Below, piece by piece: positions 6,290 through 28,073 of a DNA stretch of 64,000 nt (its first letter is position 1; every line of letters starts with the position of its first letter). The notes beneath the pieces were generated by a model. That model was not told the DNA's origin, did no database searches, and saw only the letters and a program-made list of their open reading frames with translations. The stretch comes from a virus (taxonomy: Duplodnaviria > Caudoviricetes): the IMG/VR virus record IMGVR_UViG_3300034061_001472, positions 1,127 through 65,126 of that record; one strand, 5' to 3'. Position numbers and translations under genes: made by a program.

Positions 6290-6295
6290 AATTAA

Positions 6296-12347: not shown

Positions 12348-12875
12348 CTACATATTGTTGTAGGTGCCTAGCTGCAAGACCCCGTTGACATCAGGCCATA
12401 GGTACTGATAGTACTCAGGACGATAACCTTTATCCTCTGGCCAGTTAAACTGAGAGTACCAGTCGTACTCTTTGCGTAGTAAAGCAATGCGGTGGGTAGA
12501 GGCAATTTGCTCGTACGTGTCTTTGTCTTTAAACCAGTAAGGAAAGGTAAGCTCGTCGCTGATACGCCCTAGCTCAAGCGCGCGGACTAGTGTTCCTTGA
12601 ATCTTAGGAATCATTGTAGATTTGTAACCACGAGCTAGCCACTCGTCACACATCGTAGTTGCGTATATAGATAAAGCTTTTTCGTGACCTTCCCACATCT
12701 TTGCCGCAGGATGATTGCGCCAGCCTTTAGGGTCACGGTGTTCGCCCTGTGGATTTAGCGAGGTGAGTACTAGCATAAGTTGCCATGCCTCAAGGACCTG
12801 CTTATTAAGGCGCTTGTTGTCTAGTTCTTGAGCAATACGCTCAAAGGAATCAGTATGAGGTACAAATGTTTGCAT
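12348..12875 (-). CDS. Pyrimidine-dimer DNA glycosylase/endonuclease V-like protein (MSMEG_6728 family)
   Basis: MQTFVP...LDNKRLNKQ.LEA.Q...GWRNHPA.KMW.G...EW..RGY...HR..LLRK...Y...Y.WP. Confidence 0.85.
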   Translation of the reverse strand: MQTFVPHTDSFERIAQELDNKRLNKQVLEAWQLMLVLTSLNPQGEHRDPKGWRNHPAAKMWEGHEKALSIYATTMCDEWLARGYKSTMIPKIQGTLVRALELGRISDELTFPYWFKDKDTYEQIASTHRIALLRKEYDWYSQFNWPEDKGYRPEYYQYLWPDVNGVLQLGTYNNM

Positions 12876-12901
12876 GTATTCGTCCGTTCGTCATTGTGTA
12901 A

Positions 12902-12910
12902 ATTATATCA
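12902..12910 (-). promoter_or_regulatory. Extended -10 promoter TGATATAAT
   Basis: Perfect TGnTATAAT on the - strand, upstream of 12875. Confidence 0.55.
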
Positions 12911-13222
12911 GGCTGGATTGTCCTCGGGCGGTATTTCATCAAAAGGAAGAACGTTTTCTTCGTCCATGTCCATTTCCATATCCATGTCAGGTTCTTCAAT
13001 GTCATCAGCCGATACGTATATGCCTACTACTGTAACCTTGCTGCATATAAAGCATTCGCAGACCGTTCCTGGCGACAATTTTATAGGTACGTTTACGCTA
13101 ACTAACCGCGTCAGAATGTTCCCTTCCATATCTACACTTTCGGGTTCCCACACGCTATTTTCTTCGATCCAGCACCGTTCACAAAGCGGAACAAGATCAT
13201 CGTTGTAGTCGCGTATGCTCAT
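12908..13222 (-). CDS. Hypothetical Zn-finger protein with acidic tail
   Basis: CERC...CECFIC; D/E-rich C terminus; start overlaps the stop of the MTase-like gene. Confidence 0.7.
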   Translation of the reverse strand: MSIRDYNDDLVPLCERCWIEENSVWEPESVDMEGNILTRLVSVNVPIKLSPGTVCECFICSKVTVVGIYVSADDIEEPDMDMEMDMDEENVLPFDEIPPEDNPA

Positions 13223-14484
13223 TTAGCGGTAGTCTCCATAGGGCTACTGTACCACTTATTCTTAGCGTAGTGTCTGGAGAATCCTTTGTCAGCGTCAATA
13301 AGATATTCACGATCTCCGATTAACTCCGCGTCCGGGCCTTGTGGGTTACCGTCAAGTGAGTCCTTAATCGCCTTTCCAATCCAATTTGCAGCTTGCACTG
13401 GAACAGCCTTGCCCCATACAGCCGCAAGGTGTGAGTAGTCGCGTGAGTCTTCAATATTCCAGTCATCAGGAAGACCTTGCATACGAGCAGACTCACGGTG
13501 CGTGATAAGTCGTGGTTGGGTTGGGTGCACTACGTGATCTAATGCAGAGCCGGTAAGCACGTTGCACCAATGATCTTCTTTCCAGCGGTACGGTTGCGAG
13601 AAGCCCAGCTTAAATTCCTTGCGAATAACACGAGGAGAAATATCAATCCATTTCTGTGGAAAATTACCATCATTTAAGTCTACGGCTTTCTTTAGCGCAC
13701 TACCAGTATCGCCATTGCCTTCCCAGCCATCATTGCCGATGATGCTAAAGATCTCTTCTATACGCTGAGCATGTATGTTTGATTTGCCAATGTGGCCGTC
13801 AACTAATCCATTTTTTGTACGTAGATGCGTAACGTACTTTGATGGAGACGGCGTGGTGTACTTTTGCTTATTCCAAGTCTGAGGCATCTCTGCAAGATCA
13901 CCTATGATGTCCATTATACGTGGAAGTTCTTTAGGCTCGGTGATTGGAGTTGAAAACTTAAGGCCAGACTCAATAGCAACCCAGAAGTAACGTGGGCGAT
14001 ACGAAAATCCACCAACCTGCAGGTTGTTTTCCTTAACGTGGTATAGATCGTATTTTTTACCGGAGACCTGCTCGACCATGTCGCGATACTTAACCATTAC
14101 GTCGCGCCCCTGGGTGTATGCCTGCTGAACGCACTCGAAAACAATAGCGCGTGGTTTTACCCGTCCAGCATATTTCATAAAGGCTACGGTATGCTCGTGC
14201 GCCTTAGAGTCAGGTCCACGATTCGCAGGACCAGACCATACTGACCAGCCTGAGCAAGGAGGACAACCCATAACTACATCAGCTTTTTGTACGCGCCATT
14301 CGCTAGGGTCGTCGGAAAATTCTGCAGTCCAGTCGTTCCCAAGAAGATGACGGTTGTTTTCAGCTACAACATTTCCAAAGTTTAATGTACCAGTGCGTTG
14401 AATCATCTTCATATCGTTCTGCACAAAGCCAAGACTCATAAACGCTGCAAGGCCGTTACAGTCAATAAAGGTATGTTGCGACAT
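13219..14484 (-). CDS. Divergent C5-cytosine DNA methyltransferase homologue (atypical cofactor pocket)
   Basis: Motif IV GCPPCSGWS, motif VI FECV, motif VIII RPRYFWVA, motif IX RLITHRESARMQGLPDDW, motif X WGKAVP; motif I is IDCNGLAAFMSLGF rather than FxGxGG. Confidence 0.85.
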   Translation of the reverse strand: MSQHTFIDCNGLAAFMSLGFVQNDMKMIQRTGTLNFGNVVAENNRHLLGNDWTAEFSDDPSEWRVQKADVVMGCPPCSGWSVWSGPANRGPDSKAHEHTVAFMKYAGRVKPRAIVFECVQQAYTQGRDVMVKYRDMVEQVSGKKYDLYHVKENNLQVGGFSYRPRYFWVAIESGLKFSTPITEPKELPRIMDIIGDLAEMPQTWNKQKYTTPSPSKYVTHLRTKNGLVDGHIGKSNIHAQRIEEIFSIIGNDGWEGNGDTGSALKKAVDLNDGNFPQKWIDISPRVIRKEFKLGFSQPYRWKEDHWCNVLTGSALDHVVHPTQPRLITHRESARMQGLPDDWNIEDSRDYSHLAAVWGKAVPVQAANWIGKAIKDSLDGNPQGPDAELIGDREYLIDADKGFSRHYAKNKWYSSPMETTAK

Positions 14485-14547
14485 CGAGCTACCTTTCGTA
14501 GTTCCTAGGGTAGGACCTTATACCGACATCAAGTAGCTGGCGTGCTT

Positions 14548-14871
14548 TTACGCAGAAAGATTAGCTTTTTTCTCTAATTCAATCATCCCGACTTCGTACC
14601 CACATCCGGCATACCCTGCAATATCAATCCAAGTATCTGCTTGGAATCCAGATTTTGACGCGTAACGTGCAACTTTAAGGCCAACCATCATCATTCCAAC
14701 ATCTTCATTTGATATCGTAGTGCCAAGTATGACGGACCAGATCTTTGCAATTCGTTCAAAGTTTTCTTCTGGCCCCCCGTACTGCACGTCTCTATCGCCA
14801 GAGATAATTTTTGCAGCCTCGCGTAAAGCTTCTACGCGATATTGCAGAGGATCACCAGGTGACTCAGCCAT
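14548..14871 (-). CDS. DUF6378-like phage protein (nucleotide-metabolism associated)
   Basis: L.EA..II.GDR...YG.PEENF.RIA.IWS...MM..LKVAR...D.WIDIAGYA. Confidence 0.75.
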   Translation of the reverse strand: MAESPGDPLQYRVEALREAAKIISGDRDVQYGGPEENFERIAKIWSVILGTTISNEDVGMMMVGLKVARYASKSGFQADTWIDIAGYAGCGYEVGMIELEKKANLSA

Positions 14872-15082
14872 TCTTACCCTCTATCTTTGTGCGGATAGTT
14901 ACATACGCAATTAAGACTCCGTCGTTATTTGGATCTTCACTAAAGTCTCTAGCCTTAAGCTCAGAGTCAGGCGGTAGCTCCGCAGAATCGTTATTTACAA
15001 AGCCTTGCCAGCTTTTCTTTGCGTTAGCAAGAATTTCATCGATGTTTCTTCCTCGGACTATAAGTTCTACGGTAGATCGCAT
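14864..15082 (-). CDS. Hypothetical protein, 72 aa
   Basis: Translationally coupled to both neighbours. Confidence 0.65.
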   Translation of the reverse strand: MRSTVELIVRGRNIDEILANAKKSWQGFVNNDSAELPPDSELKARDFSEDPNNDGVLIAYVTIRTKIEGKNG

Positions 15083-15501
15083 TAACGGACTCTTTTCTCT
15101 AGTTGGTGCGGTGAGTAATGTGCGCCGTCTAAGATAGGTTCTTTATCATCTGTAGACTTAAATATAATGTCGCCATAACGGATTCCTACAACCTTACCGC
15201 GTCTCCCGTTATGAATAGCGCCAGTTGCGCCGTCATAAGCGCTAGCTTTAACACGCACTTCGTCGCCTAAAGTAATTGCGCCCGGTTGAGCGTCAGTCCA
15301 TAGTTCATCAGGATTATTTTTTACTGCAGCATGTCCGAGAGAAAGACGGCTAAATAGCGCTATAACTTCTTTCTGCTGGTTCACCGACAAGGTAAGATCT
15401 TTCCAAGTTGCAAGAAGTTTAAGTGTAGCGTTGCCTATGCCTACTTTAGTCTTTGCATCTTGCATCTCAGATCTAACCCACTCATCATTAACTTCAGGCA
15501 C
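15082..15501 (-). CDS. Hypothetical protein with C-terminal SH3/KOW-like domain
   Basis: AAGGAGGT RBS; LGDEVRV...NGRRGKVVGIRYGDIIF. Confidence 0.65.
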   Translation of the reverse strand: MPEVNDEWVRSEMQDAKTKVGIGNATLKLLATWKDLTLSVNQQKEVIALFSRLSLGHAAVKNNPDELWTDAQPGAITLGDEVRVKASAYDGATGAIHNGRRGKVVGIRYGDIIFKSTDDKEPILDGAHYSPHQLEKRVR

Positions 15502-15979
15502 TGTAGTCTACCTCCTTAGGTAAGCACTTCGAGCACATGTCCGGGCTAGCGCCTCTACCAACGTCGTCGATAGCTCTAGTGCACAGAGAACATTTTACGC
15601 CTTCTTCTTTAACTTTGTACCCTTTTAGCTGTCTTTCTTTATTGCGTTCCATTTTCTCAACGTAAAACTTATTGAGCATCTCGTCTGTTCCACCCGCCGC
15701 AACGATGATATTTGCGACAAAATGTAGAACATCAACAGCTTCCTTAATTACTTCTTCACGGTCCGCGTAAGGGGCATCGTGCTGCCAAGGCTTCCACGAG
15801 ATTGCCTGGCGCATCTCTGCAAGTTCATCGTCTACCGCTAGCATATTCCAACGTAGATACTCTACAAACCTGCGAATGTTCTGAGGCTTATCGCCTTCCA
15901 TTTCTTCGTAGTTAATAAAGTATACGTCTTTTTGCAATTCACGGGTACGTTTTAACCAAGAATCAAATAAAATAGACAT
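15494..15979 (-). CDS. Dimeric all-alpha dUTPase/dCTPase (MazG-like superfamily) with C-terminal Cys4
   Basis: DELAEM...WKPW...KEAVDVLHF...Y.EK..RN..RQ..GY; CSLC...CSKC. Confidence 0.82.
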   Translation of the reverse strand: MSILFDSWLKRTRELQKDVYFINYEEMEGDKPQNIRRFVEYLRWNMLAVDDELAEMRQAISWKPWQHDAPYADREEVIKEAVDVLHFVANIIVAAGGTDEMLNKFYVEKMERNKERQLKGYKVKEEGVKCSLCTRAIDDVGRGASPDMCSKCLPKEVDYSA

Positions 15980-15980
15980 G

Positions 15981-17000
15981 CTATCCTTTCTTAGAATATA
16001 GTTTAAGAGCGCTAGATAGCGCTATTGCCGCGTCAGTGCGTGTAGGTATTGCGTCTGTGTATTCCTTGCGTTGATCTTTAGCTAGTGTATTTCTTTCTTC
16101 CTGCGACATATCTTCTATCCTTGAAGCCAAGTGCGCCCATGAGCTGCCTATCGCGCTGCTTTCACGCCAGTCGGTTGCTACGGGAGTTAACGTGTTGATA
16201 CATTGTATAAGTCTGTACGACCACCATGTGCCGTTTAAGTGTGGACTAAATAGCGCGCCTACACCTGCGGCAATCTGGCTCTCTACCTGCGCGTCTGTCC
16301 AGCCCTTGTGCCACTTCATAGGAACGGTCGGCCTTTGTAATGTTGCGGTAGTTGACTTTACCCATGATGAAGAATAATTTTCTACTACCCACTTTTCACG
16401 GCGCTCTAGTTCTATAACGTCTTGATTATTTATAAGATAAGAATCTAAGCTTATAGGAACCAAAGAAGACGCAGCGCCTGCCGGTAGCTGAGCTGCTACT
16501 CTATCTTTATCCTGCCATGGAAGTGAAGGATACAGTGTAGTTGGCCACTCTTTAGTAAGTAGATGCTCTACTATGTCTAATAAGTTTTGAAGCATGTTTG
16601 GCTGCGAAGCCGTGTCGTAGCCTTTGCGATACGAGTAAAAAGGCTTAGTTAGGTTGTCTGGGGTCTTAATAATTGCACGAAGACTAGACGTAATACGGTT
16701 AGGCTCTGGTGCATCTAAGAAAAGTACAAGTTTATCAGTGTCAAGTAGCACGTCTATTACGCTAAGTGCACCGTAGACTCTATTAGCGCTTAAGCTTGTT
16801 AGAGGACTTAGCCCGACTAAGACAGAGTCGTATTGATCTAAATCTTTAGTGTTCCATGAGACTTCAGGATCCAACTGTACTACTTCATGTCCTTGAAGAA
16901 CTAGAACTGTCCGTATAACACTTGCAAATGACGCAGATCTAGCATTTGCAGATTCTGACGCATGAGAAGCAGACATGCCGGTTATAAGAATCTTGCTCAT
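15981..17000 (-). CDS. Putative DNA glycosyltransferase-like protein (GT-B), paralogue of 16997..18214
   Basis: N-terminal Rossmann-like KILITG; L.PL.SL...GAL; WW..R motif shared with its neighbour; sits in the nucleotide-modification cluster. Confidence 0.55.
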   Translation of the reverse strand: MSKILITGMSASHASESANARSASFASVIRTVLVLQGHEVVQLDPEVSWNTKDLDQYDSVLVGLSPLTSLSANRVYGALSVIDVLLDTDKLVLFLDAPEPNRITSSLRAIIKTPDNLTKPFYSYRKGYDTASQPNMLQNLLDIVEHLLTKEWPTTLYPSLPWQDKDRVAAQLPAGAASSLVPISLDSYLINNQDVIELERREKWVVENYSSSWVKSTTATLQRPTVPMKWHKGWTDAQVESQIAAGVGALFSPHLNGTWWSYRLIQCINTLTPVATDWRESSAIGSSWAHLASRIEDMSQEERNTLAKDQRKEYTDAIPTRTDAAIALSSALKLYSKKG

Positions 17001-18214
17001 GCCAAAGTCCCATCTGCGTTACGCTTAACACCTTTATCCTCGGCTACCGCGCGTTCAATGATGCGATTACAGTGCTCTACAAACGCAGAGTATTCTGGGA
17101 TATACGGAGCAAGTGCAGTGCGTTGTGCCATGGCTGCTTCGTGTAGCTCTGTATCAGACATCTTCTCAACGTCGGTAATCTTTAGCTTATACGCATCACC
17201 AAGTGAATCGCCTTCGCCTTTGTCGGTTACAAGAATAGAACCCACATGCGCTGCGTATAGGAAGCGACTACGCCACCAGCCGGACCCCGCGTGTGGATAC
17301 GGTGGAGAAAGAATTCCCCAGTGATGATTGTAAAACTCGAGGACGTCTTGTTCGGTGTCAAAACGTTGTCCACCAAGTTTTTTAATAAGCTTACGACTGC
17401 CTACAATTTCAACTGGCCAGTCTGGATCTTTCTTTTCTAACCAAGTATCATGCGGCATAAGAGCGCCAAGTACCCACGAGCGCTTCTTGCTTGCTGAAGA
17501 CAGAGGCACGACAGGTTGAAGTGTTGGAATAATCGTAGCGGTAGGGTCTAGAGCTTCAATAGGGCCAACTTCATCAGGCATACGCTTACGTACGCTAGAT
17601 CTATCTCCAAAAGCGTACATAGGGCACACTGGAACCATACCAGCAGCCCATCGATCAGCAAGTAAGTCACGCGCAGCTTCAACTAATCTTTTTTCATACG
17701 GCTTAATGTTTTCATCGTTGTCCATCATGTAGTAGCGCTCGATGTAGCACTTTTTTGCTGCCGCAGGATTTAATTCTTTGACTCGCTCGAGCGCTGCCTC
17801 GATATCTGCACGACTAAAGTACGTTGCGCCTTCTTCACCGCGATGTTCTGTGCCTACAAGCAGATGCTTATATAGCATCTCAGGTTTACGAATTAAAGCG
17901 CGTGCGCCGTTGAATACTGTGTTAAACTGCCAATCATCAAAGAATCCTACACAAGGAATACCAGATGACAAAGCGTACAGTGCGCCCATTGCCCCTTGGC
18001 GGCCGTTTAACGAGTTAAGTGGTGCAAGGTTTATCCACAGTACATCGTAGCTAGAAAGATCTTCGCCTGGAGTAACTTTACGCCAGTCAACATCATGCCC
18101 AGCTTCACGTAGCGCTTTAGCAATAGACGCAGGCACGTCAATCTTCTGTATTGTGCGTTTTTCTGTGTTGATTTGCAACGCAGTGAACCCACTCATTAGA
18201 ACCTTCATGTCCAC
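16997..18214 (-). CDS. Putative DNA glycosyltransferase-like protein (GT-B)
   Basis: KVLMSG...LREAGHDVDWR...APLNSL...GALYAL...FFDDW...EQDVLEFY...PPYPHAGSGWWRSRF. Confidence 0.6.
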   Translation of the reverse strand: MDMKVLMSGFTALQINTEKRTIQKIDVPASIAKALREAGHDVDWRKVTPGEDLSSYDVLWINLAPLNSLNGRQGAMGALYALSSGIPCVGFFDDWQFNTVFNGARALIRKPEMLYKHLLVGTEHRGEEGATYFSRADIEAALERVKELNPAAAKKCYIERYYMMDNDENIKPYEKRLVEAARDLLADRWAAGMVPVCPMYAFGDRSSVRKRMPDEVGPIEALDPTATIIPTLQPVVPLSSASKKRSWVLGALMPHDTWLEKKDPDWPVEIVGSRKLIKKLGGQRFDTEQDVLEFYNHHWGILSPPYPHAGSGWWRSRFLYAAHVGSILVTDKGEGDSLGDAYKLKITDVEKMSDTELHEAAMAQRTALAPYIPEYSAFVEHCNRIIERAVAEDKGVKRNADGTLA

Positions 18215-18221
18215 TACCTTT

Positions 18222-18287
18222 CTAAGTAGATTTGGAGTATCACCTATTCACTGTACCAGGAACAGGTGATAAACCAGACGTACTTAG
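18222..18287 (-). other. Long imperfect intergenic hairpin (~28-bp arms)
   Basis: CTAAGTAGATTTGGAGTATCACCTATTC / GAACAGGTGATAAACCAGACGTACTTAG inverted repeat. Confidence 0.6.
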
Positions 18288-18290
18288 TCT

Positions 18291-18857
18291 TTAGAATGGA
18301 GCTGACGGTGGAGCTGCGACTACTGGAGCTTCTGCTACTGCAGCAGCGGCAGGCGCCGGTGCTGGTGCAGGTGCCGGAGCAGCAGCAGGCGCTGGCGCAG
18401 GCGCAGGTGCCGGAGCAGGTGCCGCAGCGGTTGCTGCGCCAGGTGTTGTAGCAGACGGGTAGTACTGCTTAATTTCGTTTTTCTTCTGACCTTGCCAGGT
18501 ACGTGATGTTACCTGTGCACGGAAAGAACGTCCACGAATTGCTTGCTCGATTTGAGCGTTTGAAGGGTTGGTTGCAAAAAATTCACGACCAAGACCTAGA
18601 GCGTACATCTTACGAAAGAACATGCCTAGTGCAGCATTGTTGTCTGGAGTAACTACGAGGTTATCCCAAACAAGACGCTTAGCATGCGCTCCGTTTTGTA
18701 CCTGTGCCTTAACGGCAAACATAGTCTTGCCTGATTGCGAGACCTTTGCGGTAGCTTCTACAACTAGTAAGTCGTAATCGCCATCTGGTAGTGGATCATA
18801 GCCAGTTGAAACTTCGCCGGCATCTTTAACTAAATCGCCCCAGTTAAGAGTACTCAT
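18291..18857 (-). CDS. Single-stranded DNA-binding protein (DUF669-like)
   Basis: YDPLPDGDY...SGKTM...VWDNL; Pro/Ala linker and C-terminal PF; follows the Sak4-like ATPase. Confidence 0.8.
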   Translation of the reverse strand: MSTLNWGDLVKDAGEVSTGYDPLPDGDYDLLVVEATAKVSQSGKTMFAVKAQVQNGAHAKRLVWDNLVVTPDNNAALGMFFRKMYALGLGREFFATNPSNAQIEQAIRGRSFRAQVTSRTWQGQKKNEIKQYYPSATTPGAATAAAPAPAPAPAPAPAAAPAPAPAPAPAAAAVAEAPVVAAPPSAPF

Positions 18858-18859
18858 CT

Positions 18860-19633
18860 TTAGTCATTTCCTTTCGTTGTTGGAGTTGCTTGTGGTGTTG
18901 GCCCGAAGATCATGTCTAGCATGCGCTCGATTCCAAGGTTTTCTTGTTCAACGATCTTTCCAAGTCGACCTTGTACTCGCTCGCCTGCTTCATATTCGTC
19001 TGTGCGTTCTACGTACATACGACGTGCCTTAAACGGTGATTGCAGTGGGTCTGGATTTGGAAAAGTTTCCACTGTAATTGCGCCGAGGATGTCATAGAAG
19101 TAAGGTGCTTGAATTGCGAGCTGACCCTGTAGGTACGGACGTGAACGTCCGTCTGCTCCAGGACGCGCCATGGCAGTCAATACAACAGCTTCTAAGGGCT
19201 GTGTAGGGTGCATTGTTAAGTCACGCAGGTCACGCAGTAGCGCACCCATATGACGAAGCAACTCGCCCCATTGTTGCATTTTCATCTGTTCAGTACCCGC
19301 AATTGAATCCATGCACTTCACTTGAAGTTCAGAGATGGAGTCAATGATAAGTGACTTGAACTGATGCTTTCCAGTTTGTAACCACTGGAATGTTTTGAGA
19401 ACAACATCGTAGTCGCGAACGTTAACGACTACAGTATCCCAGGTGCCATCGGCAACTGGTGGTTCTTCTCGGATAGGGTCCCAATACTTAACGGTGATAG
19501 GTAGGAATCGATGCCCACCTTCAACGTCAAGCATGAGACGTGGATACGGCGCGGTTACGGCGAAGGTTGATTTACCAACCTTTGATTCTCCGTAAACCAT
19601 GATAGTCAGCGAACGTTGTACGTCAGACATCAT
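18860..19633 (-). CDS. AAA_24/Sak4-like ATPase (RecA-fold recombinase)
   Basis: Walker A VYGESKVGKST, LDVEGG, Walker B LIIDSISE. Confidence 0.85.
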   Translation of the reverse strand: MMSDVQRSLTIMVYGESKVGKSTFAVTAPYPRLMLDVEGGHRFLPITVKYWDPIREEPPVADGTWDTVVVNVRDYDVVLKTFQWLQTGKHQFKSLIIDSISELQVKCMDSIAGTEQMKMQQWGELLRHMGALLRDLRDLTMHPTQPLEAVVLTAMARPGADGRSRPYLQGQLAIQAPYFYDILGAITVETFPNPDPLQSPFKARRMYVERTDEYEAGERVQGRLGKIVEQENLGIERMLDMIFGPTPQATPTTKGND

Positions 19634-19663
19634 TGTTTCCTTTCATCTCTTGTTTGTGTAACA

Positions 19664-20590: not shown

Positions 20591-22389
20591 AGCTTTCCTG
20601 CCTTATCGTCTTTGAGTAGTGAGAGAAGCTTGTCTTTATCTTTTACGATTTGTTCAAAGTTATCAGCCTTAGTTGATAGAACCTGGATAACACGTTCCTC
20701 AATAGAGCCGTCTGTAACGTAATCTGTAACGATAATCGAGTCATGAATTTCAGATCCGATACGGTGCACGCGGTCAAGTGCTTGCTTGTGGTCAACAAGT
20801 GACCATGGACGTTGTAGCATTACAAGACGACGAGCTGCAGTCAAGGTAATTCCAACTCCGCCCGCCTGCGCAGTAAACAGAATCCACTTTAACTTGCCAG
20901 ACTGAAAATCATCAACAGCTTGCTGGCGTTCATCCTCGTTCTGTGCTCCAGTGATTAAACCATGCGGAATCTTAGCCTTTGTCATTTCCGCACTTAATAG
21001 CTCAATTAACTGACGCGATACCGCGCAGACTGCAACAGAATCATCGCCAAAGTCTCCGCTGTTTATGTCGCTCATTAAAGAGTCTACCTTGCAAGAAGGC
21101 TCAGCAAGTATTGCGCGCATCTCACCGGTGTCTTCGTTTACGTCCATTGTTGCATATGAACTTGCAAACTGAAGTAAACGAATAGTCTGCGTAAGCGCTG
21201 AAGGTGCGGTAATCGCCTCTCCCGATTCTAACTCTGCAATCATCGTGTCGCGCATCTGGTCATAAGCTTTCTTTTGCTTAGTAGACATCTCTATATCGCG
21301 ACGTTCAAACATCATTTCTGGTAACCATGGTAAAACTTTTGCCTTAAGCATACGGCGCATGCGTGGATTTACAGTTGCGTAAAACTCTTGTTCCATGTGC
21401 GGCTTTACGCCTAAAACCATCATGCCACCAAAGGCGTTTAACATTACGTTAACCATACGATCAACCCAACGGGTCTTGCTTGGCCACTCTTCAGGCGATA
21501 GCCAGTGAAGGATAGACCATAGATCTAAAACGTTGTTTGCGATAGGTGTTCCCGTTAACGCAAAGCGAATATCCGCGTCGCCTGTTGCAGCCCACAGAGC
21601 ACGAGATTGCTTTGACTTTGGCTCTTTAGAGCGGTGTATCTCATCAGCAATCACTGCCTTAAAGTCGATTTCGTTAAGTTCCCGCTTGTGAACCTCGCAA
21701 CGATTTATTGTTGTTTTATCATCGTGCCCGCCGCAGTCTGTACAACGAGCTAAGGCAACCGAGCCATAAGGTGCAAGACGCGAGTGAGAGCGCAAGGACT
21801 CCCAGTTAATAACGTATACGTCAGCCTCGCCCTCAAAGATCTTCCTACGCTGAGTTGCAGAGCCTTTGATAACTTCAACATCAACACCAGGCCACCACAT
21901 ATCAAACTCGCGCTTCCAGTTTTTCTTTAACGTGTTAGGGCAAACGATAAGCGCGGGGAATACGTCCTCGCCATTATCTTGAAGCTGCTTTAGCGCTCTA
22001 ATTGCCTGCGCTGTTTTACCTAGACCAGGTTCATCTGCCAGTAACGCTCTACGGGCTACCGATAGGAATTTGACGCCCGCACGCTGGTGTGGGAACAGGT
22101 CCTCGTTGCCCTCTTCAAGGGTTTCTAGGTCACGAAGTTCATTAGCCGGGGTAATACGTGTAGTCACTTCGTTGGTTGCCCAAGAGGCCAATCTAGGGCC
22201 AATTTCAAGGTCAGTTTTGAAGGTAGACCGTAGCGCTAAGCACGTTGCCCATGATGCAGGCACAGCCCAGACTTGCGTCTTTGCGTCCCACTTTGCGCCA
22301 GGGATACTTTTACAAAGTTCCTTGAGACGCCACTCAGTATTTATTATTACGTGCTTGCCCGATTCATCGAGCTCTACGTTTACTGGCAC
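20587..22389 (-). CDS. SNF2-family DEAD/DEAH helicase
   Basis: LADEPGLGKT, DEIH, LTGTP, GGVGITL, QALDRVHRIG. Confidence 0.93.
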   Translation of the reverse strand: MPVNVELDESGKHVIINTEWRLKELCKSIPGAKWDAKTQVWAVPASWATCLALRSTFKTDLEIGPRLASWATNEVTTRITPANELRDLETLEEGNEDLFPHQRAGVKFLSVARRALLADEPGLGKTAQAIRALKQLQDNGEDVFPALIVCPNTLKKNWKREFDMWWPGVDVEVIKGSATQRRKIFEGEADVYVINWESLRSHSRLAPYGSVALARCTDCGGHDDKTTINRCEVHKRELNEIDFKAVIADEIHRSKEPKSKQSRALWAATGDADIRFALTGTPIANNVLDLWSILHWLSPEEWPSKTRWVDRMVNVMLNAFGGMMVLGVKPHMEQEFYATVNPRMRRMLKAKVLPWLPEMMFERRDIEMSTKQKKAYDQMRDTMIAELESGEAITAPSALTQTIRLLQFASSYATMDVNEDTGEMRAILAEPSCKVDSLMSDINSGDFGDDSVAVCAVSRQLIELLSAEMTKAKIPHGLITGAQNEDERQQAVDDFQSGKLKWILFTAQAGGVGITLTAARRLVMLQRPWSLVDHKQALDRVHRIGSEIHDSIIVTDYVTDGSIEERVIQVLSTKADNFEQIVKDKDKLLSLLKDDKAGKL

Positions 22390-22420
22390 CTTTTGCGTAT
22401 CCTTTCGTCGTTAAGTCGCT

Positions 22421-22429
22421 ATACTAACA
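22421..22429 (-). promoter_or_regulatory. Extended -10-like TGTTAGTAT upstream of the helicase operon
   Basis: TGnTAnnnT in the short intergenic gap before the GAAAGGA RBS. Confidence 0.4.
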
Positions 22430-22475
22430 GGAAACTACTTAAATGTTATTACATTTCTACTTAGTATGTAGTTTT

Positions 22476-22928
22476 TTATTGCAGAAGTCTTCTAGGGACC
22501 CAACCGAGCTTTACGCACTGCAATAAAGCGTGTCGTATCGCATCAAGAGCATGACCTTCACCACCCTTATGCCAATATTCCAGCTTCTTAAGTTTAGGGT
22601 TATCAAACATTGCCTTGGCGTCGGAAGGTGACTGAAGTATGATGTCATCTGCCTTTCTTCCCGCGTCCATAAGACATTGCTTTAAGATACCGATTTGCTC
22701 GAGGCTGTATGGAGCCTGAGATTTTTTTGCCGTCTGAGCGTTAATGATAAAGCGCTCGCAGACAACAATTACGTCAGGGTACTGAACAAGAGTGTCACGA
22801 ATAGGCTTAGCATACTCTTCTTGTTGGTACTCTCCCGCCCAGAGCAAGACAGGCTCTTCACCGCGCTCAAACGAGAACAAAGTCATGCCTGTTGCCTTAC
22901 CTGGATCTACAGATAGGATCACTTTCAT
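22476..22928 (-). CDS. RuvC-like Holliday junction resolvase/RNase H-fold nuclease
   Basis: ILSVDPGKATG, VVCERF, H..DA..H. Confidence 0.75.
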   Translation of the reverse strand: MKVILSVDPGKATGMTLFSFERGEEPVLLWAGEYQQEEYAKPIRDTLVQYPDVIVVCERFIINAQTAKKSQAPYSLEQIGILKQCLMDAGRKADDIILQSPSDAKAMFDNPKLKKLEYWHKGGEGHALDAIRHALLQCVKLGWVPRRLLQ

Positions 22929-24760
22929 CGATACTTTTCTCCCCAGTTCTCCATAGGTCCGTCAATTCCAGAAGTTAAAGGCACAGCCCAACCTTCGGTA
23001 GTAGTCATACATTGTTTTACAATTTTCATGATTTCCTGCGCGTCCTTGCGCGGTGCGTTAAGCACAATTTCATCGTGCACCGGAACGATTAGTAATTCAG
23101 TTAATTCTGCCTGATCTAGCTTTATTAAGTTAGACTTAAATACCTCAGCAGCTCCACCTTGAATTAAATAGTTAACAAGCGTGTACACTCGGTCTTCGTC
23201 GCAAGGTAAACGTCTACCAGTCCATGTGTACACGTAACCTTGGCCTTCTGCCTTAAGTCTGCGCATACCGGCGTCTTCAATTTGTTTTTGAAAGAGCGAC
23301 ATACCAGGGAAGCGCATGTCAAACGCATCTGAAACAGTTCTCATCTGGCCTTCTGCTACACCAGCTGTAAGCGCTTGTTTTGCGACGCCTGCGCCGTAGA
23401 GACGACCGTAGACAGTTCCTTTGATGAGATTACGACGCTTGTCCGACCGTTGCATCGTAGGGTCGTTGTAGATTTCACGACCAATTTCAGTGAACGGATC
23501 TGACCCTGTCGCATCTGCACGGTTAAAGAGTGTGATGAGGTTTGGGTCTTGTGAGAGGGATGCGAACATTCTAAATTCGACCTGGTCAAGGTCACTTGTG
23601 ATGATGACATGATCTTCGTCCTTTGGGATAAAAGCAGTACGGACTGTATCGTCACCCTTAGGCAAAGTCTGCAGCGCTGGATTTTGTATTGACATACGAC
23701 TTGTTCGTGCGCCAAGTGTCTTTACAGACGGGTGCACGAAACCATTTACGTTGTCATTGATAAAGTTTGCAAAGTACGTGTTAGCAAGCTTGTCTGCCTT
23801 GCGTTGTTTAAGTACTATCTCAGCAAGTTCTTTTACCTCGGAGTTACCTGAAATCGCTAAGAATTGTAGCTGATCTTTAGACGCGGACTTTTGACCCGAA
23901 GGTGTAAACTCGTTAATCTCTGCACCAAGAGATTCTAGCAAGCGCACTAGTTGAATGTTACTAGTTATAGAAACGCCAGCATACTTTTGCTGCGCCCACG
24001 ACTTAACTTGCTCCGTGTAGGAAGTAAGCTCATCAAACTTCTTTCTAGAGTAGTCTAGGTCAATGCGCGCGCCATTGAGCTCCATACGCGTAACAATGCG
24101 GCGAGTCTGCATTTCAAGCTCGTACGCTTTGTGGTAGGGCTGTCCTGGACCGCACTTCTCGTAAAACTGTTCCCATAAGCGCATAGTTAAGATGCAGTCT
24201 AACGCACCGTATGACCAGTAAGGTTGAAAATTAGTAGGAACAGTTCCCCATGTCCAACCGTTCTTGACAAGCTCTTCATCAAGTGTACCTTGCAACGCAA
24301 CCGCGCGGCCGTCAACGTGCAGAGCAGCAAGACGCTTAAGTGCGCCTGTGCCAAGTGGATCTATGATGTGCGCCATAATCATTGTGTCGTGCACTCTGTG
24401 CCAAGGTATTTTCCAACGCGACTGTATATCAAACCAGCGAGCTTCAAAAGCTACGTTATGGCAAACGATAGGTCCATCAAACTTATCCATAGCCTCATAG
24501 AAAACTCCGGCCCATTCGTCCCACGGCATAGCCCAGGACTGTTTACCATCGCCAACTTGAACTAAACGCAGTCTGCCGTGCCACGGTGATAGCGCATGGT
24601 CACGTGGGTTACCTGGAAGTTCTCCAGTTTCAGTGTCAATTGCAACCGCGTTATGAGGTCGTCGTTCACCTAGCCAAGTTATAAACTCGCCTGCCTTTTC
24701 TACGCTGTCAATTAAGTGAAGCTGAACTCCTTCTAAGTTATCAACCATTAGCTTCCTCAA
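22925..24760 (-). CDS. polA: DNA polymerase family A with 3'-5' exonuclease (likely start ATG 24748)
   Basis: Exo IDTETG, HN..FE, Y.ALD; TSRMS..NP.LQ; motif A DLDQVEFR; motif B RNLIKGTVYGRLYG; motif C VHDE. Confidence 0.95.
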   Translation of the reverse strand: MRKLMVDNLEGVQLHLIDSVEKAGEFITWLGERRPHNAVAIDTETGELPGNPRDHALSPWHGRLRLVQVGDGKQSWAMPWDEWAGVFYEAMDKFDGPIVCHNVAFEARWFDIQSRWKIPWHRVHDTMIMAHIIDPLGTGALKRLAALHVDGRAVALQGTLDEELVKNGWTWGTVPTNFQPYWSYGALDCILTMRLWEQFYEKCGPGQPYHKAYELEMQTRRIVTRMELNGARIDLDYSRKKFDELTSYTEQVKSWAQQKYAGVSITSNIQLVRLLESLGAEINEFTPSGQKSASKDQLQFLAISGNSEVKELAEIVLKQRKADKLANTYFANFINDNVNGFVHPSVKTLGARTSRMSIQNPALQTLPKGDDTVRTAFIPKDEDHVIITSDLDQVEFRMFASLSQDPNLITLFNRADATGSDPFTEIGREIYNDPTMQRSDKRRNLIKGTVYGRLYGAGVAKQALTAGVAEGQMRTVSDAFDMRFPGMSLFQKQIEDAGMRRLKAEGQGYVYTWTGRRLPCDEDRVYTLVNYLIQGGAAEVFKSNLIKLDQAELTELLIVPVHDEIVLNAPRKDAQEIMKIVKQCMTTTEGWAVPLTSGIDGPMENWGEKYR

Positions 24761-25220
24761 ATATCGTCATTTCAATGTTGCACTTAATAAAGTACTCCAT
24801 AACTTTTTCTGGCTGTCTATGCTCGGCCTTTGATTGTATACGCATAACAACTCTAGACACACCAGAGTTAGAAACTAACTTCGCGCATTGCATACACGCA
24901 GCGTCTGTTATGTATATTGTTCCGCCTTCAGTACGAGATCTATCAACGTACAGTAACGCGTTTGCCTCCGCGTGTATAGATGGGCACGCATCATACATGT
25001 TGTCTAGTGGCGCAGTGCCTTGCGCACGTGGGCACCAGTTAATACATTCGCCTTCGTTTGGAAAAGATGCAGCTGGACCGTTGTAACCAGTAGAGCTTAC
25101 GCGTTGGTCTTTAGAGACTACAACCGCGCCAATTTGAGCGCGGCTACAGCGAGAACGCAGAGCTATAGTATCCGCAACCTGCATCCAGACTTCATCCCAC
25201 GATGGGCGAGTGTTCGTCAT
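24741..25220 (-). CDS. dCMP deaminase (ComEB-like)
   Basis: RS.C.R..GAVVV...TGYNG...HAEANAL...ACMQCAK. Confidence 0.92.
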   Translation of the reverse strand: MTNTRPSWDEVWMQVADTIALRSRCSRAQIGAVVVSKDQRVSSTGYNGPAASFPNEGECINWCPRAQGTAPLDNMYDACPSIHAEANALLYVDRSRTEGGTIYITDAACMQCAKLVSNSGVSRVVMRIQSKAEHRQPEKVMEYFIKCNIEMTIFEEANG

Positions 25221-25402
25221 TCTGATAAGTCTCCCATACCTTCTGTTACCGATGCGGCAAGTACTTTTGCAACTAACGAAAGAGCTTCCTTACGAGAAAA
25301 CCCTGCGCTTTTTAGCTCTTCAAACAGCTCATGAAGTTGGACTACCGCACTTCTCAGAGGGCTTTCATCTTCTTCGTACTTATCTATACTGTCGTTACCC
25401 AT
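25217..25402 (-). CDS. Hypothetical protein, 61 aa
   Basis: Overlaps both neighbours; ELF.EL..AGFS..EAL.LV helix motif common in phages. Confidence 0.7.
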   Translation of the reverse strand: MGNDSIDKYEEDESPLRSAVVQLHELFEELKSAGFSRKEALSLVAKVLAASVTEGMGDLSE

Positions 25403-26264
25403 TTGTCTTTGCCTCGTTCTTTTTAATAGCGGTAATCATCGCACGAGCGTACCAGCCTTCAAACGGGTGAAGGCTATTCACTAACATAGGCTCTTCAATA
25501 TGCATTGCGGCGCTTAATGAAGACAGTGCGCGATCTTGAACTTGTCGCCAATTAAAACCTGTTATTGCAGGGATATCTTCGTAAGGCTCAGTCGTATACT
25601 TTAAGCTTTCAGCTGCATCGTAGTGCTGTTCATAGATATGAAGAGATCCGACATGGTGCGTATATGAACCAGGGGCAATTCCTAAAACAGACGCTACTGC
25701 AATTTGCACTCGTGTAAATTGGAAGAAGTCGTACGCTGCTCCTAGCCATACGTCATTTGAGCGCATGTAAACACTCATATTAAGCTTGTTGTCACGAATT
25801 CTAAACTGATGAAGAATCGTGCAAGGGTAATCGCGCTTCTCCGGCAAAAGATCTAGGACTGGGTCCCATATAGTGACAACAGCCTGTCGTGAGTCTGGGT
25901 CGTTCTTTAAACGCTCGATGATCGGTCCGTATTGATCTTGCGTGCGTGCGCCGTATGCTCCATGAAACATTCCGTTGTCTTCAGCGTAGTTCTTAAACAT
26001 TGGACCTACTGCGACAACAAGTTTAGGAGTTGCAGCACCCGCAAGCAGCTGACAGGCTTCAACCGCACCGATACCTGGGACAGTCCCACGCCCTACGCCT
26101 AAAGGCAGTGTGTGCTTAATATCTTCAATGCGAATAACTGCATCTTCAATTTCACGCGTCTTCATTCCACGAGGAGCTGCCTCCCTGCCGTGCTTTAGAA
26201 CGTGCTGAACAAGGTCAACGTATCCGTTAACAGCGTCAGGTATGTTGATTATCGCAGTATCCAT
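25395..26264 (-). CDS. Thymidylate-synthase-family enzyme with dCMP-type specificity residue (probable dCMP hydroxymethylase)
   Basis: GAYG.R, DSRQAV..IW, PCT..HQF, MRSNDVWLGAAYD (Asp where ThyA has Asn), GSLHIY. Confidence 0.85.
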   Translation of the reverse strand: MDTAIINIPDAVNGYVDLVQHVLKHGREAAPRGMKTREIEDAVIRIEDIKHTLPLGVGRGTVPGIGAVEACQLLAGAATPKLVVAVGPMFKNYAEDNGMFHGAYGARTQDQYGPIIERLKNDPDSRQAVVTIWDPVLDLLPEKRDYPCTILHQFRIRDNKLNMSVYMRSNDVWLGAAYDFFQFTRVQIAVASVLGIAPGSYTHHVGSLHIYEQHYDAAESLKYTTEPYEDIPAITGFNWRQVQDRALSSLSAAMHIEEPMLVNSLHPFEGWYARAMITAIKKNEAKTNG

Positions 26265-27265
26265 GGATCATCCTTATCTTTTTTCGTAGATAGACGTGTA
26301 ATAGCTTGGCCATACTCTTCTTTTTTAGAGTTAAAAAATCGACGTACGTGTTGCGGGTGTGAAGTTACGGTGTATAGGTAGTCAGGGATATTTGCATGGC
26401 GTATTCCACGTTCTGCAAGCCGTCCTAGAGCTACAACTGGTGGACGGCGTAACGTACACCATAGATCCTCAAAACGTTCTGAAGACATATCGTTTACATT
26501 AACTATACCCATAGTCTTCCACTTATCAGATTCGAGAGCTGTAAGCAAATACTCGCCGGAGTTGCCGTCAACAGGCATGAAAGGAAGAATAGTTTCCTCG
26601 CCATATTTTTTAGTGATATTTCTTGTGTCACCTACAAGTAACACCCTTGGAAAACGTGGTCCGATGTACTCCGGAAACCTAGCAAGTTCCTGCGCGTCAT
26701 CTTGTATGGCATCAGCTCTGTTAATAATATGTGAAGCAAGATGTCCGATAGAATCTAGTGAGTCAGGTGCAGGAGTTAGACGTCCCGCCAGTCCCGCTGA
26801 CATCGCCGCAGCAACTTCGTATAGACCTAAGATTTGTTCTAGCTCGTTTGCCTGTACGTAATCGTCACCGCGAGCGTTTAGACGACGAGTAATAACATCA
26901 AGAGGTTGATACAACCAAAATTGAGCAACACCGCGTGATTGAAGGAAGAGCTCTGTCCAACGCCAACCAGCTTTACCAAGGAGACCATATCCATCGCCAG
27001 AACCCGTCTCAGGGCGTTTTACCGCGGCGTAAGTTACCTCGCCCCAGTGCCAACGGTCTGCAACAGCTATGCGTTTTGACCAGTCAATATTTTCAATAGA
27101 CGTGACGTAATCCTGTAGGACCCAACGGCGAGTCATCTCATCAGGCTTAGACTTATGGTAAAACTCGATTTCTTTTTTAGGAAACTTTTCAGCAAGTTGT
27201 TTTTGGACTTCAGACACGAGTGTAGACTTGCCTGAGGCGTCTGTACCTTCGATTACTATAAACAT
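26249..27265 (-). CDS. P-loop dNMP (thymidylate-like) kinase fused to a uracil-DNA-glycosylase-like domain
   Basis: IEGTDASGKST, DRW...E..Y, RL..RGDD; C-terminal LLVGD...PF...SG.YL...VVALG..A...HP. Confidence 0.8.
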   Translation of the reverse strand: MFIVIEGTDASGKSTLVSEVQKQLAEKFPKKEIEFYHKSKPDEMTRRWVLQDYVTSIENIDWSKRIAVADRWHWGEVTYAAVKRPETGSGDGYGLLGKAGWRWTELFLQSRGVAQFWLYQPLDVITRRLNARGDDYVQANELEQILGLYEVAAAMSAGLAGRLTPAPDSLDSIGHLASHIINRADAIQDDAQELARFPEYIGPRFPRVLLVGDTRNITKKYGEETILPFMPVDGNSGEYLLTALESDKWKTMGIVNVNDMSSERFEDLWCTLRRPPVVALGRLAERGIRHANIPDYLYTVTSHPQHVRRFFNSKKEEYGQAITRLSTKKDKDDPWILR

Positions 27266-27866: not shown

Positions 27867-28073
27867 CTAAATATCTTCTGCTCTAGCAATTTTTATTTTT
27901 CGTGGTACGTCTTGCTCTGGTTCTAGTTCTCCCTCAGGCGCGTTTAGCTCCGCGGTAAGAGCAATAATCGTTGCCTTTTGAACAGCTATCTCCTGCGCCA
28001 ACTCGCCGATATGAGTGCGTAGCGCCGCAAGTACATGCTCGATCTTTATGTCTTGTTCTTGGTTATTTGTCAT
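27867..28073 (-). CDS. Small coiled-coil protein downstream of the tail fibre gene
   Basis: GGAGG RBS; TAATG overlap with the fibre stop codon. Confidence 0.7.
   Translation of the reverse strand: MTNNQEQDIKIEHVLAALRTHIGELAQEIAVQKATIIALTAELNAPEGELEPEQDVPRKIKIARAEDI

Follow-up and report, generated by a model that had tools for sequence, protein, structure and literature searches.

A candidate pathway for glycosylated hydroxymethylcytosine DNA, with a divergent C5-methyltransferase homologue, in an actinophage from lake water

Introduction

To our knowledge, the replacement of cytosine by a sugar-bearing derivative is known so far from T-even-like phages and a small number of others that infect Gram-negative bacteria. 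DNA decorated in this manner resists restriction enzymes and can hinder cutting by CRISPR systems. Here we examine a window of 64,000 nt (positions 1,127-65,126 of the IMG/VR record IMGVR_UViG_3300034061_001472, which holds 65,126 bases), in which the genes between positions 27265 and 12348 encode likely counterparts of the T4 enzymes for cytosine replacement. Judging from its gene content, this region is probably, although by no means assuredly, the operon for replication and nucleotide metabolism of a lake-water actinophage with a T4-style replacement of cytosine, and glycosylated 5-hydroxymethylcytosine (5hmC) in its DNA is a well supported inference. The same module houses a divergent homologue of C5-cytosine methyltransferases (C5-MTases), here called the methylase homologue, whose possible contribution to the pathway is discussed along with the alternatives.

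With the whole region as query, megablast found nothing among 50,697 phage records. At the protein level, DSL-LC01, an Actinomycetia phage assembled from a metagenome, comes nearest among the named phages, followed by the Gordonia phages GodonK, Phendrix, GMA2, Sixama, Forza, Boopy, BlueNGold and Mareelih and by the Micrococcus phage Kurnik. These relatives and the presence of a WhiB gene support an actinobacterial host, as a preliminary description of this DNA had proposed in calling the virus an actinophage.

Phage T4 offers a counterpart for each step of the predicted pathway, namely the pyrophosphohydrolase gp56, of which the window encodes a homologue, an enzyme of the thymidylate synthase (TS) fold with aspartates at positions 143 and 177, a dNMP kinase, a dCMP deaminase and two glycosyltransferases (GTs) of the GT-B fold. 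On several aspects, the window differs from T4. Its host is an actinobacterium and its replicase a family A polymerase; its kinase resembles YorR and thymidylate kinases and carries a uracil-DNA glycosylase (UDG) fold instead of being gp1-like; its TS homologue belongs to another subfamily than gp42 and has a C-terminal extension; its GT-like proteins are without significant sequence similarity to T4 beta-glucosyltransferase (BGT); and the methylase homologue is a constant extra member.

The phages RB69, DLP3 and RL38J1, which carry glycosylated 5-hydroxycytosine, share with the window the N177D change and an acidic residue at position 143 of the TS homologue, a kinase of the YorR or thymidylate kinase type, a dCTPase and several GT-B enzymes (Lee et al., NAR 2026, PMC13326640). 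The RL38J1 group further resembles DSL-LC01 by its UDP-galactopyranose mutase (PMC13326640 section 28). These phages differ in their D169N change, which is absent from the window, DSL-LC01, GodonK and Kurnik, and sections 24, 25 and 28 of the same paper describe no methylase homologue in them.

A precedent for non-methyl transfer by a phage enzyme of the C5-MTase fold is SpCmoX from Synechococcus phage S-B43 (PDB 8YF3), in which the position of HhaI Asn304 is taken by Arg350, a residue that contacts the carboxyl group of carboxy-S-adenosylmethionine (carboxy-SAM) and that, according to the authors, mirrors the engineered M.MpeI N374K (PMC12783734). Finally, other phages make glycosyl-5hmC after replication with clusters of a methyltransferase (MT), a TET-type 5mYOX enzyme and a GT (bioRxiv 10.1101/2023.12.21.572611). 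Like these clusters, the window combines a C5-MTase-type gene with GT-B proteins resembling T4 BGT; in contrast with them, its module has no TET/JBP enzyme and the hydroxymethyl group would come from the TS homologue at the nucleotide level. The TET/JBP route was rejected: its one match, below threshold, comes from G001, a complete close relative of 129.5 kb with terminal repeats, and the protein matched belongs to 2OG-FeII_Oxy_3 and is encoded at a distance from the module. This 209-aa 2-oxoglutarate- and Fe(II)-dependent oxygenase (L088:1222-1851, ~100.7 kb; 2OG-FeII_Oxy_3, 47.7 bits) does not score as a TET/JBP enzyme and may be a prolyl hydroxylase of collagen-like proteins.

A predicted dCMP hydroxymethylase

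In the PDB, the TS homologue is most similar to MilA, a CMP hydroxymethylase (E 3.7e-23), with true thymidylate synthases close behind, and it fails all the NCBIfam equivalog cut-offs for thymidylate synthases (best scores of 90.4 against 174.55 and of 84 against 327). Aligned with E. coli ThyA and T4 gp42, it keeps Cys146, within a PC motif, and Asp169, and it replaces both Leu143 and Asn177 by Asp. At position 143 the window reads KRDYPC against MALAPC, with an Asp as in T4 gp42; at position 177 it reads AAYDFF against PFNIAS of ThyA; and the segment MRSNDVW provides the Asp at position 169, which is also present in three relatives. DSL-LC01, GodonK, Kurnik and T4 gp42 display the same set of Asp143, Asp169 and Asp177, and the Asp-type homologue announced in the preliminary description is thereby recovered in the alignment.

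Published residue rules give these positions a functional meaning. According to Lee et al., N177D brings a preference for dCMP, and an acidic residue at 143 admits water and is associated with a hydroxymethyl and not a methyl product (PMC13326640 section 24), whereas D169N was found in all the 5-hydroxy-dCMP synthases tested (section 28). By these rules, the window enzyme is predicted to synthesize 5-hydroxymethyl-dCMP (5hm-dCMP); as Asp169 is retained, the predicted product is not 5-hydroxy-dCMP (5ho-dCMP). Two other assignments were discarded, that of a 5-hydroxy-dCMP synthase of the RB69 gp48 type because the window has Asp where Asn169 is expected, and that of a canonical ThyA because of Asp177 and of the NCBIfam scores under the cut-offs.

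The syntenic slot of Kurnik holds an enzyme annotated 'thymidylate synthase' (L004:254-1003) that is 51% identical to T4 gp42 (E 7e-76) and 38% identical to the window TS homologue over 119 residues. Judging from this resemblance, Kurnik, a cultured phage of a Gram-positive host with a genome of 56 kb, very probably makes 5hm-dCMP. The occupation of one slot of a conserved module by two TS subfamilies argues that the job of this module is the synthesis of hydroxymethyl-dC.

A different use of the same genes would yield DNA devoid of 5hmC. The TS homologue would then methylate dCMP, from which the deaminase would give dTMP in a bypass, or the deaminase would turn hm-dCMP into hm-dUMP, and the GT-B proteins would act on proteins or cell-wall precursors. 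This scheme draws on the absence of ThyX from all five records searched (the window record and the four complete ones of G001, DSL-LC01, GodonK and Kurnik), on the single TS-like place of DSL-LC01, which leaves no separate thymidylate synthase, and on the position of the deaminase two genes away from the TS homologue. We nevertheless hold it to be distinctly unlikely, since L143D fits hydroxymethylases and not methyl-forming enzymes (PMC13326640 section 24), the Kurnik enzyme is close to the proven T4 hydroxymethylase, and T4 itself possesses both gp42 and the deaminase Cd. Under the reading that we prefer, with 5hm-dCMP as the product, dTMP would presumably be supplied by a host enzyme from the dUMP made by the deaminase. 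In T4, the conversion of dUMP into dTMP is carried out by the phage enzyme Td.

Kinase-UDG fusion and gp56-like enzyme

The protein encoded immediately upstream of the TS homologue matches YorR in the PDB by sequence (2axp, E 1.4e-4), and its AF2 model (pLDDT 91.1) is composed of two domains. Both of the folds that the preliminary description had seen in this kinase-UDG fusion were retrieved by VIA-align on the model. Residues 1-204 align with SPbeta YorR (2axp) at Z 17.8 and with thymidylate kinases at Z 13-14.4, while residues ~191-331 align over ~130 residues with UdgX (6ail, Z 11.8) and with the UDGs of Thermus (2d3y, Z 11.5) and Thermotoga (1l9g, Z 11.4). Kinases of the YorR or thymidylate kinase type are also listed in the TS-homologue gene clusters of DLP3, RB69 and RL38J1 (PMC13326640 Table 1, section 25).

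The motifs LLVGDxRN, PFMPVDGNSG and HPQxVRRF are conserved in 27 aligned homologues of the fusion protein. Catalytic motifs of UDG families 4 and 5 are GE(A/G)PG and HPS; the conserved motifs of the UDG-fold domain read LLVGDxRN and HPQ and are unusual for a UDG. No Pfam UDG family matched this domain, and the ESM Atlas linked the C-terminus of the protein to PF03167 clusters at 0.86, which we retain as a lead only. A further alignment of the UDG-fold domain (residues 198-333), at Z 9.8, is with a portion of a solved family A DNA polymerase from a phage (9qhs, 'phiLo ... with modified template'); phages with modified DNA may have such UDG-like domains in their replication proteins repeatedly.

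The pyrophosphohydrolase of the MazG type, placed further downstream, is similar to T4 gp56 by BLASTP (E 7e-10, 28% identity over 115 aa), is labelled dUTPase by PHROG and matches dimeric dUTPases of the PDB (E 3e-4). From these similarities it is a homologue of the gp56 dCTPase/dUTPase, with a putative specificity for dCTP.

Candidate DNA glycosyltransferases

The 405-aa and 339-aa proteins have no Pfam, NCBIfam or useful PHROG name. Their description as two GT-B-like paralogues holds on both counts, the paralogy from BLASTP (E 6e-9, 21% identity over ~380 columns) and the fold from the model of the 405-aa protein (AF2, pLDDT 94.9, from 77 aligned sequences). The first Foldseek match of this model is T4 BGT (1qkj, E 2.2e-7). 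With VIA-align, T4 BGT structures reach Z 18.2-19.6 over 291-306 residues (1nzd, Z 19.6, 305 residues aligned, root-mean-square deviation 3.9) and T4 alpha-glucosyltransferase Z 16.4-17.0 (1y8z, Z 17.0), and the other GT-B enzymes, among which SenB, PimA, BshA and MshA, do not exceed Z 17.5, a value obtained with SenB. The modelled fold is certainly GT-B; the margin over SenB being ~2 units, the T4 DNA enzymes are its nearest solved neighbours.

HMMER retrieved relatives of this family in 619 clusters (E <= 0.001), mostly of 330-360 residues, and the 339-aa protein has an orthologue in DSL-LC01 (37% identity, E 3e-77). Several longer members are fusions with additional domains: P0280 (566 aa) ends with a dUTPase_2 domain, P0350 (914 aa) begins with a C5 DNA_methylase domain, and P0279 and P0293 contain class I methyltransferase domains. 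Part of the N-terminal domain of the GT family has further matches in T4-like phages of Aeromonas, Vibrio and Stenotrophomonas. In Aeromonas phage 50AhydR13PP (L002:2895-6164), the gene for the middle-promoter regulator is followed immediately downstream by three neighbouring hypothetical genes of ~350 codons, the middle one of which matches this N-domain at 30% identity; the three are candidate DNA glycosyltransferases of that phage group.

The nature of the acceptor is the second point on which a pathway without 5hmC would depart from ours. In its favour, the phage probably glycosylates other targets too, and the DSL-LC01 authors take the UDP-galactopyranose mutase of that phage as a cell-wall gene (PMC10611076). 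Its acceptors are however difficult to reconcile with a GT family that is fused to dUTPase and C5-methylase domains and whose nearest solved structures are two DNA glucosyltransferases. In DSL-LC01, the mutase gene (L001:16324-17421, Pfam GLF, 105 bits) sits between two BGT-like genes and is reminiscent of the mutase of the RL38J1 group, which suggests that the sugar differs between relatives. The cell-wall reading of this gene may be wrong, with a galactofuranosyl decoration of the DNA as the alternative. GodonK and Kurnik possess further, different glycosyltransferases.

The module in related phages

DSL-LC01, GodonK and Kurnik have in common with the window a succession formed by the TS homologue, the dCMP deaminase and polymerase I, then recombination genes, then glycosyltransferase-like genes, a MazG-like gene, at least one small ORF and the methylase homologue. 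The deaminase slot is annotated deoxycytidylate deaminase in all three phages, and a thymidylate kinase is annotated just upstream of the TS homologue in DSL-LC01 and GodonK. ORFs of similar size occupy the small-ORF slots of DSL-LC01.

An alignment-based scan of IMG/VR located the methylase homologue in 227 loci, of which 80 were kept; all of them are close relatives (at least 70% identity) and so provide no independent contexts. As the preliminary description had suggested, the gene neighbourhood of the homologues was surveyed, and the order of the block recurs across the 31 loci of at least 12 kb, as far as each locus reaches: the GT-like 405-aa and 339-aa genes, MazG, the 139-aa and 72-aa ORFs, DUF6378, the methylase homologue, the 104-aa ORF, the glycosylase, a 114-aa ORF and WhiB. 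The exceptions are L044 and L076, in which crude ORF picking labelled neither MazG nor DUF6378. Of a 9.9-kb stretch, 59% or more of the sampled words occur in each of 20 metagenome runs, 19 of which bear a lake-water label; six of these runs may be the source sample. The 22 runs considered are all stored as contigs, and none as raw or long reads.

Among the 50,697 phage records, the methylase family was found in 15, which correspond to 10 phages (DSL-LC01, eight Gordonia phages and Kurnik), and all 10 carry a TS homologue. Nine of them hold the closest named relatives of the window TS homologue and the tenth, Kurnik, has the gp42-like enzyme; the diagnostic Asp residues of the dCMP type were examined in three of the ten. 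This co-occurrence is not a count of independent events, as the lineages share a homologous replication module. The association nevertheless persists where identity has fallen to about one third, where one hydroxymethylase subfamily has taken the place of the other and where the glycosyltransferases differ. When 185,579 species genomes were scanned for patterns drawn from the methylase alignment, 36 pattern matches appeared, none of which was confirmed, a result that rules out close cellular relatives only.

The methylase homologue

The match of the methylase homologue to Pfam DNA_methylase (PF00145) is well above the gathering threshold (75 bits against 22) and covers residues 65-374 only; its score for NCBIfam dcm (TIGR00675) is 39.6 bits and does not reach the cut-off of 100.65. 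In comparison with M.HaeIII, motif IV reads GCPPCS for GGPPCQ, motif VI FECV for AENV, motif VIII SYRPRYF for QDRKRVF and motif X WGKAVP for IGNAVP. From this alignment, the nucleophile Cys77 and the residues Glu117, Arg163 and Arg165, which hold the flipped cytosine, are kept, and the changes consist of GN to GK (Lys359, motif X), ENV to ECV and PCQ to PCS. PDB alignments equally set Lys359 on the Asn of the M.HaeIII GNAVP motif. Among 12 homologues of 60-80% identity these motifs do not vary, and Lys359 is invariant in all the sequences examined, including a set of seven that descends to 33% identity; GodonK and Kurnik, whose proteins are 33-37% identical, retain this Lys. The altered cofactor pocket of the preliminary description is therefore real as regards the Lys of motif X. 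In the GT-family fusion P0350, motif X of the methylase domain reads ARGV instead of GN.

Residues 1-64 were left uncovered by phmmer and by the family profile against the PDB, by Pfam, and by hhalign against E. coli Dcm, in which the alignment starts at residue 65. Canonical C5-MTases have FxGxGG as motif I and an acidic residue in motif II. By eye, motif I of the homologue reads CNGLA(A/G)F (NGLGGG in GodonK and HGFGGG in Kurnik), and the segment of the usual acidic ribose-binding residue reads RTG(T/S)L, with no acidic residue after the second strand. Nine positions among these 64 residues are invariant across sequences down to 33% identity, so that the N-terminal part is not decaying, and this invariance suggests that it still binds a ligand. 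The Kurnik match extends to position 10 of the Pfam profile.

We propose that the methylase homologue is a conserved member of the module and not a stray restriction-modification gene. It would retain the machinery for the covalent attack of a flipped cytosine, with a cofactor side rebuilt around the invariant Lys. Such a rebuilding argues for an activity other than plain methylation dependent on S-adenosylmethionine (SAM), which on the balance of these motifs we consider the likelier case, and the extra chemistry put forward in the preliminary description is plausible. In its most specific form, the proposal is that the homologue acts as a new base-modifying enzyme of the hmC pathway, using the Cys-C6 chemistry without a methyl donor to produce an undescribed cytosine derivative; we put this forward tentatively, with less than even confidence. 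Such an enzyme could, for instance, replace or enlarge the substituent carried by the 5-methylene of 5hmC or glycosyl-5hmC, or attach a non-methyl group taken from another donor. C5-methyltransferases deprived of SAM are reported to add or remove formaldehyde and to couple thiols to 5hmC.

The main rival is an ordinary SAM-dependent enzyme that makes 5-methylcytosine (5mC), with divergent motifs and no chemical link to the hmC pathway. It would protect the cytosines that escape replacement or act before replacement is complete, and its presence would resemble that of Dam beside gp56 in T4, where dam adjoins gene 56. We grant this rival a substantial although minor share of the probability. The Pfam score and the preservation of Cys, Glu and both Arg speak for it, as do the glycine-rich motif I of GodonK and Kurnik, the extent of the Kurnik match, and an avoidance of GGCC and GGCGCC in the window (see below), which suggests that some cytosines are exposed to restriction. 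It accounts less readily for the invariant Lys in place of the motif X Asn over 33-94% identity, for the lack of an alignable acidic residue in motif II, for an N-terminal stretch that matches no canonical enzyme, and for the score under the dcm cut-off. Moreover, every phage in which the family was found has a TS homologue, and the scan of cellular genomes confirmed no member. The qualification of the enzyme as 're-purposed' is supported only in part, by the altered pocket and by this restricted occurrence, and it leaves too little room for a plain SAM-dependent methylation of residual cytosines. Likewise, the argument that an ordinary C5-MTase would be redundant on C5-substituted DNA is logical without being decisive.

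A third possibility follows the example of SpCmoX, with which the homologue shares a phage C5-MTase fold, the Cys, Glu and Arg residues and a basic residue in place of the motif X Asn. As a carboxymethyltransferase of a Lys type, it would use carboxy-SAM to form 5-carboxymethylcytosine on unreplaced cytosines. In the alignment, Lys359 falls on the Asn position taken by Arg350 in SpCmoX, and the family profile weakly matches 8yf3 (E 8.6e-4). However, the window has Lys and not the Arg of SpCmoX, the SPPC of CmoX reads CPPC in the window enzyme (CPPC or NPPC in the family), motifs I-III were not recognised in the alignments and the ribose-binding Glu of CmoX has no visible counterpart. Furthermore, the homologue occurs with pre-replicative hmC genes and not with CmoA: neither CmoA (TIGR00740) nor an amide ligase of the asparagine synthase type was found in the five records, although for CmoA the Corynebacterium glutamicum control gave none either. 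We regard this reading as improbable.

The least probable of the activities considered, and a purely speculative one, is the cofactor-free deamination of unmodified (host) cytosine to uracil. The UDG-fold domain and the glycosylase/AP (abasic site) lyase resembling endonuclease V would subsequently break the cytosine-containing DNA and spare the hmC DNA, by analogy with the cytosine-specific nucleases of T4. The SAM motifs indeed seem eroded in a protein that has kept its catalytic Cys, one operon contains both a UDG-fold domain and a Pyr_excise gene, and a SAM-free deamination by M.SssI was reported (PMC3804486). But the three parts do not travel together: the annotations of GodonK and Kurnik have no Pyr_excise gene beside the methylase homologue, and their kinase slots hold a 260-aa thymidylate kinase and a 413-aa AAA ATPase, respectively. 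A physical association of the methylase homologue with the 405-aa GT-like protein was also modelled; the complex prediction gave 0.00 in two runs, with the controls not folded, and it carries no weight either way.

Proposed pathway

With these elements, a complete route to glycosylated 5hmC DNA can be drawn. The gp56-like pyrophosphohydrolase would lower dCTP (and dUTP) to the monophosphate, the Asp-type TS homologue would convert dCMP into 5hm-dCMP, and the YorR-like kinase would phosphorylate the latter, a host kinase completing the triphosphate. The family A polymerase of the phage would then make 5hmC DNA, on which the two BGT-like GT-B paralogues would place one or several sugars. In parallel, the dCMP deaminase would feed dUMP towards dTMP, like T4 Cd. 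The proposal of the preliminary description, that the phage makes hmC DNA and elaborates it, gains support from the residues of the TS homologue, the gp42 match of Kurnik, the homology to gp56 and the T4-like fold of the GT model.

Several observations weigh against this reading. It rests on genes, folds, residues, synteny and co-occurrence, and the record itself has a completeness of ~50%. The residue rules derive from a limited set of tested enzymes, and the nearest solved match of the TS homologue, MilA, is a CMP enzyme, so that the sugar specificity is itself inferred. By BLASTP, the similarity of the GT-like proteins to T4 BGT is not significant (E 0.094), and Kurnik has no detectable member of the 405-aa family (its 442-aa protein reached a probability of 6.5% against the family profile). 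GT-B enzymes act on many acceptors, and other glycosyltransferases of the window phage probably serve non-DNA targets. As for the methylase homologue, it passes the Pfam threshold and keeps all the catalytic residues, and with the glycine-rich motif I of GodonK and Kurnik the binding of SAM is possible.

The composition of the window points in the same direction without being decisive. Six-base palindromes have a mean observed/expected ratio (O/E) of 0.83, against 1.00 for the other hexamers, and GGCC (O/E 0.63, z -4.4) and GGCGCC (O/E 0.18, z -4.3) are both under-represented. Such a shortage would be unexpected if every cytosine were restriction-proof, and hints that not all of them are shielded. 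CpG is not depleted (rho 1.02) and GpC is enriched (rho 1.27).

Finally, our search of the literature on DSL-LC01, GodonK, GMA2 and Kurnik, which excluded supplements and left subscription journals mostly uncovered, retrieved no report of DNA modification. In the accessible part of the DSL-LC01 paper (PMC10611076) the methylase is treated as ordinary, and that of the GMA2 paper mentions methylase and glycosyltransferase genes in general terms only. Within this limited coverage, cytosine replacement or DNA glycosylation in the DSL-LC01, Gordonia and Kurnik lineages is apparently undescribed.

Implications

If the proposed pathway is correct, sugar-decorated cytosine replacement would be common in actinobacterial phages too, which would provide a third host group for pre-replicative replacement, and the ensuing resistance to restriction and CRISPR would matter for actinophage engineering. 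The BGT-like family, with its 619 clusters, no Pfam model and relatives bearing extra domains, would represent a pool of possible DNA-glycosylating enzymes. The most valuable part would be the methylase homologue, a natural and conserved variant at the very position where M.MpeI N374K or the Arg of CmoX switches the transferred group, within an hmC pathway for which plain methylation has little obvious use. These questions are directly answerable at the bench, as the module is carried by cultured phages, GodonK, GMA2 and their relatives on Gordonia and Kurnik on Micrococcus.

Gene layout and neighbouring regions

All the genes of the module lie on the minus strand in a single run from 27265 down to 12348 (Table 1). 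Adjacent genes share 1-20 nt or directly abut at 27265/26264, 25402/25395, 25220/25217, 24760/24741 and 22928/22925, and further overlaps or abutments are found at 18214/17000, 15501/15494, 15082, 14871/14864 and 13222/13219. Every ORF named in the preliminary description was recovered at its coordinates and on this strand, mostly with overlapping stops and starts, and its assignments of the deaminase, the family A polymerase, the dUTPase and the pyrimidine-dimer glycosylase-like gene were each matched by Pfam.

Table 1. Coordinates of the module genes and of the WhiB gene that follows them in the window
Feature	Positions	Strand	Basis or remark
dNMP kinase (YorR/thymidylate-kinase-like) with UDG-superfamily domain	26249-27265	-	338 aa; in Pfam, a weak P-loop match alone
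TS homologue, predicted dCMP hydroxymethylase	25395-26264	-	Pfam Thymidylat_synt, 101 bits
61-aa ORF between TS homologue and deaminase	25217-25402	-	ORF list; no Pfam match
dCMP deaminase, counterpart of T4 Cd	24741-25220	-	Pfam dCMP_cyt_deam_1, 65 bits
Family A DNA polymerase	22925-24760	-	Pfam DNA_pol_A, 183 bits; 3'-5' exonuclease domain weakly matched (DNA_pol_A_exo1, 22.5 bits, just under cut-off)
Recombination/helicase genes separating the two halves of the pathway	18291-22928	-	Pfam; annotation of syntenic DSL-LC01 genes
GT-B fold glycosyltransferase-like protein, candidate DNA 5hmC glycosyltransferase	16997-18214	-	405 aa; structural model
Paralogue of the 405-aa GT-like protein, candidate second DNA glycosyltransferase	15981-17000	-	339 aa; BLASTP against the 405-aa copy
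All-alpha NTP pyrophosphohydrolase (dimeric dUTPase/MazG type), T4 gp56 homologue	15494-15979	-	Pfam dUTPase_2, 42.5 bits
Three small conserved ORFs (139, 72 and 107 aa)	14548-15501	-	107-aa ORF (14548-14871): DUF6378, 101 bits
C5-cytosine methyltransferase homologue	13219-14484	-	Pfam DNA_methylase, 75 bits
104-aa Cys-rich ORF with acidic tail	12908-13222	-	Start overlaps the methylase stop
Pyrimidine-dimer DNA glycosylase (T4 endonuclease V family)	12348-12875	-	Pfam Pyr_excise, 72 bits; same slot in DSL-LC01
WhiB gene	11357-11869		Follows the module past the glycosylase

The genes between the two halves of the pathway, omitted from the earlier list, comprise a 150-aa ORF, an SNF2 helicase, a PD-(D/E)XK nuclease, an AAA_24 ATPase and a DUF669 protein, the last four named by Pfam at 18291-22389; the DSL-LC01 gene syntenic with the 150-aa ORF is annotated RuvC-like. 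The three small ORFs described as conserved do exist and are displayed by most of the 31 IMG/VR loci, but a family could be assigned to DUF6378 only: the 139-aa and 72-aa ORFs have no Pfam family, NCBIfam match or useful PHROG name, and searches of the PDB, NCBIfam and PHROG gave nothing informative for DUF6378 or the small ORFs. A PHROG label of 'phosphofructokinase' among them had no checkable basis and was left unused. The Zn finger of the preliminary description is a putative one, read from the Cys pattern visible in the 104-aa ORF. This ORF is labelled in 29 of the 31 loci of close relatives; it has no family in Pfam, PHROG or NCBIfam and is missing from the DSL-LC01 annotation.

On the other side of the WhiB gene, the plus strand of positions 1-11336 encodes three collagen-repeat proteins (a partial one of 681 aa, then 992 aa and 238 aa), followed on the same strand by a GT4, two GT25 and a GT2-TPR-methyltransferase fusion and then by a convergent GT2-like gene. 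The glycosyltransferases of this cassette probably modify the collagen-like fibres rather than DNA. The G+C content, 46% for the window, drops to 37-42% at positions 6001-10000. Upstream of the module, a structural region contains minus-strand ORFs of 1287 aa (28073-31936) and 2409 aa (51307-58536).

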